A DNA stretch of 64,000 nt from the NCBI GenBank assembly GCA_009015555.1, contig GCA_009015555.1_3613.1. One strand, 5' to 3'. The notes beneath the pieces were generated by a model. That model saw only the letters and a list, made by a program, of their open reading frames with translations, was not told the DNA's origin and searched no databases. Shown here piece after piece: positions 7,978 to 63,615 of this stretch. Source of the DNA: a phage. The position numbers and the translations under genes were made by a program. Positions within the stretch are counted from its first letter, which is position 1. Every line of letters starts with the position of its first letter.

Positions 7978-8010
7978 TAAAAAGGCACCCTAACGGGTGC
8001 CTTTCTTTTT
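7978..8010. terminator. bidirectional rho-independent terminator between convergent blocks
   Basis: AAAAA-GGCACCC-TAAC-GGGTGCC-TTTCTTTTT: A-tract on one side and T-tract on the other. Confidence 0.8.
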
Positions 8011-36902: not shown

Positions 36903-36951
36903 CCAAACTCCTAAATGAGAAAGGCCCAGTTTATCACTGAGCCTTTAGAAG

Positions 36952-45661: not shown

Positions 45662-46188
45662 AAAAGACACTAAGCATTAAACCTGTTATCTCCACATACC
45701 TCGGTTGTCCTGACCGATACGGGAGTGCCGAGGTTATGGACGATGGTGATTGGTTGGACCTCGAAGAGGACAAGCAATACCCTATCACTCGTTTGGGTTG
45801 CCTGATCAACGGCAAAGAGCCGGAGGAGACGTACTGCATGTACTACTTCCTCCAAGCAATGAAGCCCGGCTATAAGGGCGATTATCAGGACGGTTGGACG
45901 TGGAACACGTTCTTTACCTGTTCCTGCGGTCACGGCGGTTGCGCCGGGTATCACGAGAACGTCCGTATCCACCGTAAAAAGGCTACCGTCCGGGTCATGG
46001 GTAAGGTATCCGACGGTTATAAAAACGGCGTGGTGGGCACTGGGGAGGCCGTGGTGTACTTCGATAAGAAGGAGTGGGATGCGGTCCGTGATTACTACAT
46101 GGACCTGTTCCGCAAGAACCCGGATGGCATCTTCCAGGATAACGAAATCTTCTTTACCGGGCGTTACGGCCTGAAAGCATGGGGTTGA
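45658..46188 (+). CDS. hypothetical Cys/His-rich protein
   Basis: 176 aa; CSCGHGGCAGYH. Confidence 0.55.
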   Translation: MKKTLSIKPVISTYLGCPDRYGSAEVMDDGDWLDLEEDKQYPITRLGCLINGKEPEETYCMYYFLQAMKPGYKGDYQDGWTWNTFFTCSCGHGGCAGYHENVRIHRKKATVRVMGKVSDGYKNGVVGTGEAVVYFDKKEWDAVRDYYMDLFRKNPDGIFQDNEIFFTGRYGLKAWG

Positions 46189-46190
46189 GA

Positions 46191-46805
46191 ATGAAGCGTA
46201 CCAAAGTAATCAACAAGGCGCGATTCCGTAAATCCTTTCTGGGGTTTGCTGTCGCGGCTGTTGTAACCTTCACCCTGTCCGGCTGTGAGCAAGCTGACGA
46301 AACGGTGAAACTGTACATGAACTCTGAGCAGTGTGCCAAAGAAAGCGGAAATACGCTCGAACAGTGCCAAACTGCGGAGAAAGAGGCCCAGAAGGTTGCC
46401 GCAGAAACGGCACCGAAATTTGGGACGTATGCCGAGTGTTACGAAGAGTTTGGCAGTATGTGCCAACATAACTCGGCGGCTGCTGCCAGTACGGGCGGGG
46501 AATCCCCGTGGATGCCTCTGATGATGGGTTACATGCTGGGCAATATGATGGGGTCAAGTAACTCCTATCACGCAGCACCGATGTACCAGAGCCGTTCTGG
46601 TCAGTGGGTTGACAACAAGGCCCGGTCTTACGACGTGAAGCCGGGGAAATCGTTCAAAGTAACGAAGTCTGCCATTAAGCCAAAGGTTGAGGCACCGCGA
46701 TCCACTTGGTCCGGTTCCAAATCCGGCTTCTCCTCGTCAAAGACAACCACCCGTGGCGGGTTCGGTTCCTCTGTGGGGCGTAGTAGCAGTTCTTTTGGTG
46801 GATAA
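46191..46805 (+). CDS. lipoprotein
   Basis: MKRTKVINKARFRKSFLGFAVAAVVTFTLSGC signal plus lipobox; Gly/Ser-rich C-terminus. Confidence 0.55.
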   Translation: MKRTKVINKARFRKSFLGFAVAAVVTFTLSGCEQADETVKLYMNSEQCAKESGNTLEQCQTAEKEAQKVAAETAPKFGTYAECYEEFGSMCQHNSAAAASTGGESPWMPLMMGYMLGNMMGSSNSYHAAPMYQSRSGQWVDNKARSYDVKPGKSFKVTKSAIKPKVEAPRSTWSGSKSGFSSSKTTTRGGFGSSVGRSSSSFGG

Positions 46806-46810
46806 AAGTA

Positions 46811-46838
46811 TTGACTTATCAGATGGCCCATATATAAT
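46811..46838 (+). promoter_or_regulatory. sigma70-type promoter with -10 inside a palindrome
   Basis: TTGACT-16-TATAAT; the -10 sits in the loop of GGCCCAT...ATGGGCC. Confidence 0.65.
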
Positions 46839-46870
46839 GGGCCTCATTGACAACAAAGAGGAGAAATTCA

Positions 46871-48109
46871 ATGCAGCAGACTTACAAACGTACTGACCAA
46901 ACCATGTTTAAGAAACGAATCAGTATCCGACAGATGGAAGATCTGATCCGCCTTGGTGCCCGTATCGGTAAAACCACTTTCTTCTTCGGTGGTGCAGGTC
47001 TCGGTAAGTCCCAAAAAGTGTTGCAGGTAGCCAACAACATGTTCCCCCACCGCATCGGGGACAACCTGTGTGACGTTCGCCTGTCCGACAAAGAGCCGCA
47101 GGATATTGCAGGTATCCCGGTCCCGGTAACCTATTTCGATCCGGTTCAGGGCAAAGAAGTTACCCGTACTGTGTACGCATGTCCGAGCTTCTGGCCTACA
47201 GACCCGAACTGGGAAGGTATCGTATTCCTGGATGAACTGCCGAACGCAATGCTGGGCACTCAGCACTCTGCGTATCAGGTTATTCTGGACCACGTTGCAG
47301 GTGACCACCGCTTCCCGAAAGGTTGTGTGTTCGTTGGTGCAGGTAACCGTGACACCGATAACGCAGGCACCACCGAAATGCCTGGGCCGCTGGTTAACCG
47401 TATGATCATGGCAGAGGTTGAATACAATCTGGATGTGTGGATTGAGGACTTCGCAGTCCCATTCAAACTGCACCCACACGTAATCGGCTTCCTGAAGCAG
47501 TTCCCGGAGCATTTCTACACTGGTGACGTAGAGAAGCGCTCTACTCCGGTGTTCGCATCACCTCGTCAGTGGAAAACTGTTTCTGACATTCTGTACGATT
47601 ACGAAGTACAGAAGAATGAGTACATCACCGAGATCGCTATCGCGGGTTCTGTTGGTGAAGGTCTGGAAACTGCGGTTCTTGCGTACCACTTACGTGCCGC
47701 TGAACTGCCGAAAGTTGAAGACATCTTCTCCGGTAAGGTGAAAAAGCACGAACTGTCTCGTGAGAAGAACGACCTGGTTTACGTACTGGCACAGACCTGC
47801 TTACGTCAACTGGAGAAAGAAGTGATGGACAATGGCATGAATGATGAGATCTTCATCGAACGTGCTTCTAACTTCCTAAACTTCATGTTCAACAACTATT
47901 ACAAGGCGAACAAAGACACCATGATCGCGCTGATGATTGGTATCTTCCGTGCATCCAATACGGATCAACAGGCGATCCTGAGCCTGAACCCGAAACGTAC
48001 CAAGATGATCCCGGCGCTGCGTAAGAACTGCGAAGCTGTTATGACTATCGTAATGGAGTATCAGACTCGTTATGGTAAAATCATGGAGGATTTCAACGTT
48101 AAAGGTTGA
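46871..48109 (+). CDS. MoxR-type AAA+ ATPase
   Basis: GAGGAG RBS. Walker A GGAGLGKSQ; Walker B VFLDELPNA. Confidence 0.8.
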   Translation: MQQTYKRTDQTMFKKRISIRQMEDLIRLGARIGKTTFFFGGAGLGKSQKVLQVANNMFPHRIGDNLCDVRLSDKEPQDIAGIPVPVTYFDPVQGKEVTRTVYACPSFWPTDPNWEGIVFLDELPNAMLGTQHSAYQVILDHVAGDHRFPKGCVFVGAGNRDTDNAGTTEMPGPLVNRMIMAEVEYNLDVWIEDFAVPFKLHPHVIGFLKQFPEHFYTGDVEKRSTPVFASPRQWKTVSDILYDYEVQKNEYITEIAIAGSVGEGLETAVLAYHLRAAELPKVEDIFSGKVKKHELSREKNDLVYVLAQTCLRQLEKEVMDNGMNDEIFIERASNFLNFMFNNYYKANKDTMIALMIGIFRASNTDQQAILSLNPKRTKMIPALRKNCEAVMTIVMEYQTRYGKIMEDFNVKG

Positions 48110-48133
48110 CATCACAATATAAGCTGATAGAAT
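48106..48133 (+). promoter_or_regulatory. candidate promoter ahead of the VWA gene
   Basis: TTGACA-16-TAGAAT overlapping the MoxR stop codon. Confidence 0.4.
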
Positions 48134-48167
48134 GGGGTCATCTTTCGAGATGGCCCCTTTTTCTTTT
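48134..48167 (+). terminator. terminator-like hairpin / leader stem-loop
   Basis: GGGGTCATC-TTTCGA-GATGGCCCC followed by TTTTTCTTTT, between the MoxR stop and the VWA RBS. Confidence 0.6.
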
Positions 48168-48176
48168 GGAGGAAAT

Positions 48177-49733
48177 ATGTTCGACAATATCATGAGTGCC
48201 GAGGAGCTTGAGCTTGCCAACGCCAATACAGAAGAGGCAGAGAAACTCCTTGAGGCTGCAAGTCTTCAACTGATGCGCTACAAACCTTTCTATGGTGTTA
48301 TGTTGGCGTCAATGCCGATTATCCGTGCCACAGAGACCATCAACACGATGGCTACCAATGGGCGCGACCTGTTCTATTCTCCGGAATTTGTTGCCGGGAT
48401 GTGCGATAAGCGCAAGGCGCTGGTAAAACAGCGCATTGACCAGCAAATCACCGACAAGAAGAAGAATGCTGAGATGAAGTTGATGATCGATGTGTTCTAT
48501 CGTAGAAAGACTGCCCGTGAGGTGGCCTTGGTGTTGGAGCACGAGTGTGATCACGTGGTTTCTGAGCACATGTACCGTGGAAAGGGTTACAACTTCGCGC
48601 TGTTCAACATTGCTGCCGACCACCGTATCAATACGAACGCTGTTCTTAACCACACAACGAATAATGAAATGGGGACAGCGTGGTTCCCTCTGGGTGCCAA
48701 AACAGTGTTCGACCCAGGCAAAGAGTTCGGCTTCATGAAGTGGGCATACTGTGACTTCCAGTATGCAGATATGTATGCCGAGCAGATCTATGAGCTTCTC
48801 GTTAAGCAGACCCCTCCCCCTCCGCCGAGCGGTGGTGGCGGTGGTGAATCGGGAAGCGGAGAGGAAGGTCAAGGTGATTCCGGTGGTCAGGGTAATGGCC
48901 CAATGGGTACTGACCAACACCCGAATGCAGACGGGACCTTCAGTGAGCAAGATGGGGAAGACGATCTGTCCAAAGCAATGGGCACTGACCCGGGGGCTAT
49001 GAAGCCGCTGACCCAGGATCAAAAGAACTATAACGACACGGTAATGCGTCGGGCAATCGAGAACGCTGTTCAGGCAGCGGGCAAGGGAGCGCCAGCGGAT
49101 GCTCGTAAGTTTGTGGAGGAGGCAGGAAAGCCGAAGGTTAACTACCTGCGACTGTTACGTCGGACAATTGAGCGGCTGTTCAAAGACAACGTTTCATACC
49201 GTCGTTTAAACCGCCGTAGCTACTCCCTGACGCGATCTTTACGTCAAGCAGGGCATCTTACTTCCCGGCAGACGATCGGCCTTCCTTCGTACACTAAGGC
49301 TAAGACAATCCGTGCTCACGTATTCTTCGACGTGTCTGGATCTTTTACTGATGATTTGCTGGCTCCGACCAAACGTGAGATCAAGGGCCTGTGCAACCAG
49401 TACGAGGACTTTGAGGTCACTATGGCGGCATGGTCCACAAAGGTTGGTAATATCTGTACTTACACGAAGAAGAACCTGAAGGAGATTGATAACTACAAGA
49501 TCAAGACTACCTACGGGACCGATGTACAGTGCGTGTTCGAATGTCTTGATAATCTTGACAAAGAACCCGATCAGATTGTAATCTATACAGATGGTTACTT
49601 CTCTGATGTGTCCAATGTTAAAAACTGGGCCGAGAAGTATGGCAAGAAGACGCTGTGGATCATCCTGGGCCGTCACGGACCGGAATGGACCCCTCCGTTC
49701 GGCACTGCCATCGACTTCGACAAATATCTGTAA
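48177..49733 (+). CDS. von Willebrand factor A (VWA) domain protein with MIDAS motif
   Basis: GGAGG RBS. MIDAS D-x-S-x-S (VFFDVSGSF) and TDG (IYTDGYF); Pro/Gly-rich linker. Confidence 0.8.
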   Translation: MFDNIMSAEELELANANTEEAEKLLEAASLQLMRYKPFYGVMLASMPIIRATETINTMATNGRDLFYSPEFVAGMCDKRKALVKQRIDQQITDKKKNAEMKLMIDVFYRRKTAREVALVLEHECDHVVSEHMYRGKGYNFALFNIAADHRINTNAVLNHTTNNEMGTAWFPLGAKTVFDPGKEFGFMKWAYCDFQYADMYAEQIYELLVKQTPPPPPSGGGGGESGSGEEGQGDSGGQGNGPMGTDQHPNADGTFSEQDGEDDLSKAMGTDPGAMKPLTQDQKNYNDTVMRRAIENAVQAAGKGAPADARKFVEEAGKPKVNYLRLLRRTIERLFKDNVSYRRLNRRSYSLTRSLRQAGHLTSRQTIGLPSYTKAKTIRAHVFFDVSGSFTDDLLAPTKREIKGLCNQYEDFEVTMAAWSTKVGNICTYTKKNLKEIDNYKIKTTYGTDVQCVFECLDNLDKEPDQIVIYTDGYFSDVSNVKNWAEKYGKKTLWIILGRHGPEWTPPFGTAIDFDKYL

Positions 49734-49741
49734 GGAGAATT

Positions 49742-50119
49742 ATGTCACAGTATGGTTATCAATTAGAGTGTGGTCGCCGGGGGGCGACCCTCTCTGTGTT
49801 CCGTTTGGATAAGGCTGGGCAGGTAGAATACACCTGGCGATCGATGTTCAACAGCCGGGGTATGGAAGTTGTCAGGGCCAATGCCGAGGGTATCGAGACA
49901 GAACTTGCCCATTTTGAGACATTCCTTTACCCGGATCGTGTAGACGAGGATGAACTTGCCTTTGTGGATCTTCTGTCGATGTCTCCGGTAAAAGAGGATC
50001 ATGATTTCATTATGCTGTGCTCTTTCTTGGTTGCCAAGTGGGCAGCGGGACATAACGAAGAGATGTTGCATGATGCTATTCGCCCGACCCTGAAAAAGTG
50101 GGCAGAAAAGACAACATAG
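49742..50119 (+). CDS. hypothetical protein
   Basis: AAGGAG RBS before ATG 49742. Confidence 0.55.
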   Translation: MSQYGYQLECGRRGATLSVFRLDKAGQVEYTWRSMFNSRGMEVVRANAEGIETELAHFETFLYPDRVDEDELAFVDLLSMSPVKEDHDFIMLCSFLVAKWAAGHNEEMLHDAIRPTLKKWAEKTT

Positions 50120-52594: not shown

Positions 52595-52597
52595 TTA

Positions 52598-52625
52598 AAG
52601 GGGTTGACTTCGGTCAACCCCTTTT
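52598..52625 (+). terminator. rho-independent terminator
   Basis: AAAGGGGTTGAC-TTCG-GTCAACCCCTTTT. Confidence 0.8.
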
Positions 52626-52671
52626 GCTATTCTTAGTCCATCGAAACGAAACAGAGAAAAGGAACGACAAG

Positions 52672-56592: not shown

Positions 56593-56647
56593 TCACCACA
56601 TAGCGACGCACACCGCGCCGCGCTAACAGAAGAGAGAGACCGTTATC

Positions 56648-57101: not shown

Positions 57102-57130
57102 TTGACACCGGGGCCACCTGGCCCCATACT
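57102..57130 (+). promoter_or_regulatory. sigma70 promoter with spacer hairpin
   Basis: TTGACA-ccGGGGCCacctGGCCC-CATACT. Confidence 0.7.
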
Positions 57131-60477: not shown

Positions 60478-60527
60478 CTAACCCATAGCGACGCACACCG
60501 CGCCGCACTAACAGAAGAGAGACCGTT

Positions 60528-61521: not shown

Positions 61522-61551
61522 TTGACGCCGGGACGGTTCCCGGCTTATAAT
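61522..61551 (+). promoter_or_regulatory. sigma70 promoter, CCGGGA...TCCCGG spacer palindrome
   Basis: TTGACG-CCGGGAcggtTCCCGGC-TTATAAT. Confidence 0.8.
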
Positions 61552-62717: not shown

Positions 62718-62746
62718 TTGACATCCGGCCCGAAAGGGCCGATAAT
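62718..62746 (+). promoter_or_regulatory. sigma70 promoter with spacer hairpin
   Basis: TTGACA-tccGGCCCgaaaGGGCC-GATAAT. Confidence 0.7.
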
Positions 62747-63563: not shown

Positions 63564-63615
63564 TCACCACATAGCGACGCACACCGCGCCGCGCTAACAG
63601 AAGAGAGATCGTAAA

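Follow-up and report, generated by a model that had tools for sequence, protein, structure and literature searches.

A candidate overlapping terminator/promoter cassette between two tandem genes of a Certrevirus genome

Phages of the T4 type carry promoter-early stem-loops (PeSLs), composite elements made up of an AT-rich tract, a sigma70 promoter, a stem-loop, and a Shine-Dalgarno (SD) sequence with its start codon (Arbiol et al. 2010, PMC2839356; Comeau et al. 2014, PMC4122927). Termination at the stem-loop has been demonstrated, and lacZ fusions supported the activity of the promoter (PMC2839356). For the genus Certrevirus, the sigma70-like early promoter has been given as AAAA(N3-4)TGTTGAC(N17-19)TATAAT (Buttimer et al. 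2020, PMC7344957), in a paper that makes no mention of stem-loops in or beside promoters. The locus considered here, positions 48106–48167 of a 64,000-nt stretch of phage DNA (GenBank assembly GCA_009015555.1, contig GCA_009015555.1_3613.1; ‘the window’ below), lies between a gene for a P-loop ATPase, labelled ‘MoxR’, and a gene for a metallopeptidase with a VWA-like domain. At this junction a sigma70-like promoter runs directly into a hairpin that resembles an intrinsic terminator. The locus is probably an overlapping terminator/promoter cassette that divides two tandem transcription units, and is most likely a conserved, compact variant of the known type of phage promoter/terminator cassette, not an attenuator. 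Composite cassettes of this kind, so far described for T4-type phages, may thus also organise transcription in the Vequintavirinae.

The promoter-, hairpin- and ribosome-binding site (RBS)-like parts of 48106–48179 are all present on the plus strand (Table 1). The promoter part, TTGACA-16-TAGAAT, matches the sigma70 consensus at 11 of 12 positions and has a TGn motif 5′ of the −10, an extension absent from the initial annotation. From 48134 to 48167 the anatomy is that of an intrinsic terminator, with a GC-rich stem, a short loop and a U-tract abutting the stem; six of the stem pairs are G-C and one is a U·G wobble. The initial annotation had rightly recognised both parts, as sequence matching and folding show, including the overlap of the −35 with the ‘MoxR’ stop codon. 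Its hairpin and T-tract directly after the −10 also stand, but the stem, counted there as 9 bp, has ten pairs including the wobble. An alternative −10, TATAAG at 48117, was discarded: it lacks T-7, has no −35 partner and is unconserved in relatives.

Table 1. Positions of the cassette parts and of related features in the window
Feature	Position	Strand	Remarks
Promoter-like site of the upstream ATPase unit, TTGACT-16-TATAAT	46811-46838	+	11/12 match
Upstream P-loop ATPase gene (‘MoxR’)	46871-48109	+	Stop TGA 48107-48109; PHROG 1297; Walker motifs
−35 hexamer TTGACA	48106-48111	+	Overlaps upstream stop codon TGA 48107-48109
Spacer, 16 nt	48112-48127	+	TG near 3′ end; read from sequence
Extended −10 TGaTAGAAT	48125-48133	+	TG 48125-48126; hexamer TAGAAT 48128-48133
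Predicted transcription start A48140	48140	+	7th base after −10; A of conserved CA; inside 5′ arm
Terminator hairpin GGGGTCATCT-TTCG-AGATGGCCCC	48134-48157	+	Directly 3′ of −10; -16.2 kcal/mol
Hairpin 5′ arm	48134-48143	+	
Hairpin loop TTCG	48144-48147	+	
Hairpin 3′ arm	48148-48157	+	
T-tract TTTTTCTTTT	48158-48167	+	Expected 3′ end of upstream transcripts; ~+19 to +28 of downstream unit
Shine-Dalgarno GGAGG	48168-48172	+	Belongs to downstream VWA-metallopeptidase gene
Start codon ATG of VWA-metallopeptidase gene	48177-48179	+	Sequence and annotated starts in relatives
Downstream gene, DUF2201_N metallopeptidase + VWA-like DUF2201	48177-49733	+	Pfam
Next strong plus-strand terminator, AAAGGGGTTGAC-TTCG-GTCAACCCCTTT	52597-52633	+	-18.5 kcal/mol; probable end of VWA unit
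Early promoter examples	57102-57130; 61522-61551; 62718-62746	+	

The arrangement of the two parts decides how they can work together. A sigma70 −10 element spans −12 to −7, transcription starts about 7 nt (range about 6–9) after its last base, and CA is a favoured −1/+1 context. Because the −10 abuts the stem, the last base of the one at 48133 and the first base of the other at 48134, the predicted start falls inside the 5′ arm, at about its seventh of ten nucleotides. RNA from A48140 would lack the GGGGTC of that arm. The full hairpin energy of −16.2 kcal/mol shrinks to −3.6 kcal/mol for a start at 48139, −0.4 at 48140 and 0 at 48141 (0 to −3.6 over 48139–48142), and the residual mini-stem is separated from the U-tract by GGCCCC. 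With its start inside the 5′ arm and a residual stem that is weak and away from the U-tract, the promoter-derived RNA cannot form the terminator, and the hairpin can therefore act only on transcripts arriving from upstream. According to the initial annotation, every transcript from this promoter would have a terminator at its 5′ end, a claim that does not survive this geometry.

The same layout recurs in a survey of 21 sequences. The core GG…CC stem begins 0–2 nt after the −10 in 17 of them, and in three of these the last bases of the −10 (AAT or AGT) also pair with the beginning of the T-tract; in the other four, the phiTE group, the −10 (GATCAT) lies within the 5′ arm. The seventh base after the −10 falls within the hairpin in all 21: it belongs to the 5′ arm in 17 and, in the four of the phiTE group, to the 3′ arm, and is mostly the A of the conserved CA. 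Promoter-derived RNA across these relatives keeps 0 to −4.3 kcal/mol. The paradox of a terminator standing right after a promoter is thereby resolved by a geometric rule: where the stem follows the −10 without a gap, transcription from the promoter begins within the hairpin, and its RNA thereby avoids termination. The rule could be of use elsewhere, in annotation and in synthetic biology.

A probable course of transcription through the junction can be drawn from these elements. Transcripts from upstream would start, probably, at the promoter-like site at 46811 before the ATPase gene, carry the full hairpin and U-tract, and terminate at ∼48160–48167. Host sigma70 polymerase would bind TTGACA-16-TGaTAGAAT and start at ∼A48140, with the 5′ arm of the terminator doubling as the GC-rich discriminator and start site of the promoter. 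The new RNA would comprise the loop, 3′ arm, U-tract and RBS, unable to form the terminator, and the re-initiated transcript would cover the VWA-metallopeptidase gene and the following small genes, its probable end being the terminator at 52597. The upstream mRNA would end ∼20–28 nt beyond the point where the next mRNA begins, and the units would overlap; the ATPase and VWA-metallopeptidase genes are thus predicted to be separate, slightly overlapping transcription units. Promoter activity in infection, the exact start site and termination by the hairpin are all things that we infer from the sequence. As a part, the cassette is compact: 62 bp with predicted terminator and promoter function.

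Like a PeSL, the cassette is a single intergenic element that combines a sigma70-like promoter, a terminator-like stem-loop and an SD with start codon; it would isolate neighbouring genes transcriptionally, and its stem-loop overlaps the promoter and is missing from the promoter's own RNA. It differs in register and setting. The stem-loop of a PeSL lies mostly between the −35 and −10 or over the −10, whereas here it follows the −10 and covers the discriminator and +1; there is a full canonical U-tract, which puts the predicted termination point 20–28 nt past the predicted start point, and there is no AT-rich UP tract. PeSLs are many dispersed copies in hyperplastic regions, while the cassette is single-copy and orthologous at one gene junction, in Vequintavirinae and not in T4-type phages, with no evidence of recombination between copies. 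With the described Certrevirus early promoter the cassette shares the genus, dependence on host RNA polymerase and a TTGAC/TAnAAT core, but it has a 16-nt spacer and TGn, lacks the AAAA/UP part and lies outside the early cluster. Terminators and attenuators in 5′ untranslated regions (UTRs) likewise stand within a few tens of bases of a promoter (PMC10914365); there, however, transcription takes in the entire hairpin and yields short aborted RNAs, whereas the predicted start in the cassette lies within the stem. The overlaps reported by Conway 2014 (PMC4161252) are convergent and divergent only, with no starts inside terminators.

Conservation of the promoter was followed through the orthologous junctions of 12 GenBank Certreviruses, of A5-4, Kashira, KPP-1, 4MG and Murica (distant Vequintavirinae found through the VWA protein), and of the IMG/VR contigs L019–L026; 70-odd very distant IMG/VR VWA loci (L027–L098, 22–27% identity) were left out. 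TTGACA-like and TAnAAT-like hexamers are kept in Certrevirus, A5-4, Kashira, and Mydovirus-like and Seunavirus-like relatives. Twelve distinct cassettes were compared, drawn from several lineages of the Vequintavirinae whose VWA proteins are as little as ∼35% identical. Averaged over pairs, identity is 0.74 in the −35 and 0.77 in the −10, while ten-base stretches of the spacer stay at 0.28–0.31, the random level. All 12 keep A-11 and T-7, the two positions of a −10 that matter most, and 7 have TGn. The −35 overlies TGA in most Certreviruses, where the last sense codon is GGT, GCT or TCT, always ending in T; in POP15, A5-4 and Kashira it sits 3–4 nt past a TAA and overlaps no stop. Because the hexamers are kept across lineages while the spacer is randomised, they are not fortuitous.

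The cassette also stays intact as genes come and go around it. At least three independent insertions flank it in relatives, most of them HNH homing genes. An HNH gene separates the ATPase gene from the −35 in P7_Pc, where the VWA gene has kept promoter, hairpin and RBS; the genes inserted in the phiTE group, A5-4 and L024/L026 lie 3′ of an intact cassette and use its RBS. One cassette has thus held its place at this junction through at least three adjacent insertions, in lineages that have diverged to ∼35% protein identity. The initial annotation had allowed that the hexamers were fortuitous and the element only a terminator; the contrast between hexamers and spacer, the −35 retained where it overlaps no stop codon, and the module that stays with the VWA gene in P7_Pc all contradict this.

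Selection acts on the hairpin as a plus-strand RNA structure, as shown by its covariation, a conserved U·G pair, and a minus-strand stem that is weaker and has no T-tract. In an alignment of 15 distinct sequences with a ten-pair stem, 94% of stem cells are paired and 6 of the 10 pairs have changed on both sides; not one of 500 column shuffles comes up to the real alignment in pairing, in covariation score or in how many pairs covary. When the 3′ partners are slid by 1–3 columns, pairing falls to 24–58%. At one stem position the U·G wobble is conserved, with C-G there in other lineages. Read on the minus strand, the wobble becomes a mismatch (−11.7 against −16.2 kcal/mol), and a function on that strand was set aside for this reason, for the missing T-tract and because the genes between 44 and 64 kb all lie on the plus strand. 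All relatives have a T-rich tail 3′ of the stem, the loop varies from 3 to 6 nt, and the depositors of phiTE marked the orthologous hairpin as a terminator in their GenBank record. The CATC of the 5′ arm is near-invariant next to outer pairs that covary freely, as is the CATC…GATG core across lineages at ∼35% protein identity; this fits a double constraint of start site and pairing. An Rfam scan of 46500–49000 gave no family at gathering score. The match to ctRNA_p42d (RF00489) at 48129–48169, with 21.6 bits against a gathering score of 50 and E 0.17, was dismissed as the generic terminator resemblance of a short hairpin with a U-tract.

Readings in which only one of the two parts works, or in which the promoter is gated by its own hairpin, have to be set against the cassette. 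The hairpin could simply end the ATPase transcript, with hexamers that form no working promoter and a VWA gene expressed by read-through. A canonical hairpin with T-tract, annotated as a terminator in phiTE, is what such a reading expects, A-rich sequence is common before terminator stems, and Murica has the hairpin without a convincing promoter. It is nevertheless unlikely, since it leaves unexplained the conservation of the hexamers over the spacer (0.74/0.77 against 0.28–0.31), the retention of A-11 and T-7 in 12 of 12 cassettes and of TGn in 7 of 12, a TTGACA that persists when no longer over a stop codon, a module that moves with the VWA gene in P7_Pc, and an 11/12 match with TG that is expected 0.035 times per window; the VWA gene and its followers up to 52597 would moreover be poorly expressed behind a −16 kcal/mol terminator without a promoter. 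An attenuator or premature terminator gating the VWA gene, as the initial annotation had alternatively proposed, would abort the promoter's transcripts at a leader hairpin unless an antiterminator acted. Promoter and terminator are indeed adjacent at 48106–48167, and 5′ UTR terminators with short aborted RNAs are documented in phages, 42 of them in Pseudomonas phages by ONT-cappable-seq (PMC10914365). The transcript to be attenuated, however, does not contain the complete hairpin: an RNA begun 6–9 nt past the −10 has lost GGGGT or more of the 5′ arm, and what it can still fold is worth no more than −3.6 kcal/mol (−0.4 for a start at A48140). The cassette also has no leader between +1 and hairpin that could hold an alternative antiterminator structure, a leader peptide or a ligand-binding element, and with the same geometry in 21 of 21 relatives an attenuator is highly improbable.

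Two further readings take the repeat as a DNA element. An inverted repeat across +1 is in the typical position of an operator, and the near-invariant CATC…GATG core at such protein distances could mark where a dimeric repressor of the phage or the host binds, the terminator look being secondary or additional. What is conserved is pairing, not sequence (six of ten pairs covary), the conserved U·G makes the DNA palindrome imperfect, loops of 3–6 nt would alter the spacing of the half-sites, the T-tract is always present, and start-site constraints explain the conserved CATC equally well; an operator is accordingly quite improbable. The cassette might instead serve mainly as a homology patch for gene shuffling, a role proposed for PeSLs (PMC2839356, PMC4122927) and suggested by the insertions, at least three and independent, that flank it in relatives. 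Such a recombination linker would need a second copy, whereas the hairpin is single-copy in the window and the cassette occupies one place per genome, and most of the inserts are HNH homing endonucleases with a mobility mechanism of their own; this role is very unlikely.

Several observations weigh against the cassette as a dividing element. Not every member of the subfamily has the promoter: in the rV5-like phage Murica the hairpin, whose T-tract is poor, comes with no convincing one. The −10 of the phiTE group, without TG, is weak. An A-rich stretch before the stem partly belongs to the anatomy of any terminator, and this inflates the apparent conservation of the −10 somewhat. The published Certrevirus consensus (PMC7344957) differs from the cassette promoter, and the 20 nt upstream of the −35, which are coding, are 60% AT against 77% for early promoters. 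Polymerases from upstream must cross the whole promoter before terminating, which gives no insulation from occlusion, unlike a classic terminator-then-promoter pair. A literature search found no published start-site, 3′-end or transcriptome data for Certrevirus or Vequintavirinae.

Because the upstream RNA would be released at +19 to +28, within the footprint of the overlapping promoter, the overlap could also be a coupling device, although this is distinctly doubtful. Polymerase kept on the DNA after termination would be handed back to the promoter, tying VWA output to ATPase transcription, or paused terminating polymerases would occlude the promoter and the units would alternate. After intrinsic termination, RNA is reported to be released, as a rule, before polymerase leaves the DNA, and retained polymerase to be able to re-initiate (Kang et al. 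2020, PMC6978380; Harden et al. 2020, PMC6978322). The likeness to such promoter–terminator coupling and polymerase recycling (bioRxiv 10.64898/2026.08.19.745784; PMC6978380; PMC6978322) is that termination and initiation sites fall within one polymerase footprint, and it serves as a lead only. Were coupling true, the invariance of CATC/GATG would reflect a constraint beyond pairing and start-site choice.

The promoter part is far from a chance match. A search of the window for TTGACA-N16-18-TATAAT with at least 11 of 12 matches, with dinucleotide-preserving shuffles of the window as control, gave 14 sites against 0.5 expected, and two with the TG extension against 0.035 expected. The hairpin sequence of the cassette occurs once in the window with up to three mismatches allowed (0 expected), and a query with the 83-nt cassette finds one matching place per phage record.

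Overlap of promoter and hairpin is a recurrent design in this genome. All 17 plus-strand early-region promoters between 56165 and 63563 have a GC-rich hairpin in the −35/−10 spacer or around the −10. They follow the pattern of an AT-rich tract, TTGAC[GAC], N17-18 and [TC]ATAAT, with hairpins of −11 to −20 kcal/mol (Mann–Whitney p ∼1e-6 against all windows of the region) and a spacer GC content of 78% against 51% for the region. These early promoters, at 56–64 kb, match the description of PeSLs much more closely than the 48134 cassette does. Within the window, 48134 is the one clear case of a −10 that abuts the stem with +1 in the 5′ arm; at 7981, a weak site (9/12) places +1 in the arm too. 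The hairpins of the early promoters go unmentioned in the Certrevirus promoter paper (PMC7344957).

Other overlaps have other registers. The terminator at 52597–52633 is overlapped by a promoter-like site whose −35, TTGACT, lies within the stem and is followed by TGcTATTCT, which makes it a second overlapping terminator/promoter in a register different from that of the 48134 cassette; this hairpin is terminator-like on the minus strand too. On the minus strand, the terminator AAGGCTCAGT-GATAA-ACTGGGCCTT at 36945–36921 is overlapped by TTGACT-16-(TG)TAAACT, with a predicted start at the 3′ edge of the hairpin. Before the ATPase gene (46811–46845), the −10 of the promoter-like site occupies the loop of a GGCCC…GGGCC hairpin, and the orthologous gap in phiTE carries an annotated terminator. 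A near-identical stretch of ∼40 nt, CA(C/T)AGCGACGCACACCGCGCCGCGCTAACAGAAGAGAGA, is common to three early leaders, at ∼56593–56640, 60478–60520 and 63564–63610; it is a repeated 5′ UTR element that holds a GC-rich inverted repeat between promoter and SD.

The window belongs to Certrevirus (Vequintavirinae, rV5-like myoviruses), and its 46000–50000 region is ∼96–97% identical to the Cronobacter phages PBES 02, CR3 and CR8. The upstream protein matches PHROG 1297 ‘ATPase’ (E 2.6e-107) and has the Walker A motif GGAGLGKS and the Walker B motif IVFLDE; searches of Pfam (E <0.01) and of PDB sequences gave no match. The label ‘MoxR’, taken up in the initial annotation, is the annotation in relatives, including phiTE and CB7: the ATPase part of the label is borne out by the Walker motifs and the PHROG, but the family name comes only from those records. 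By its sequence it is a divergent AAA+/P-loop protein of unverified family assignment.

The downstream protein matches PF13203 (1.2e-22) and PF09967 (1.4e-08) in Pfam. In the program-made list of open reading frames (ORFs), its frame starts at an in-frame ATG at 48132, within the −10 and first stem base (48132–48134); the real start is 48177, with GGAGG 4 nt upstream and the same start annotated in relatives. Sequestration of this SD by the freed 3′ arm was considered and not used: the SD is predicted to be somewhat less accessible than in the read-through RNA, through long-range pairs with coding sequence in a 76-nt fold that is not robust. The gene is called ‘HNH endonuclease’ in the RefSeq records of CR3, CR8 and PBES02 and in PHROG 1314, probably a mis-annotation propagated from HNH genes inserted beside it, and ‘anti-sigma factor’ in some rV5-like records.

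The ATPase/VWA junction is an insertion hot spot, with inserts at L001 2950–3475, L013 1217–1711, L002 3604–4101 and L024 1354–1980 (orthologous to ∼48110–48176). The HNH genes inserted after the cassette in the phiTE group and A5-4 are 68% identical to each other, and the HNH gene before the cassette in P7_Pc differs from them; the insert after the cassette in L024/L026 is an unrelated 208-amino-acid ORF. In the hairpin 5′ of the VWA gene, the stems GGCCATC/GATGGCC are identical in KPP-1 (L016 ∼1680–1702), L025 and L024, and the loop reads AGTTAC in KPP-1 against GTAACT in L025 and L024, exact reverse complements that are the signature of hairpin inversion.

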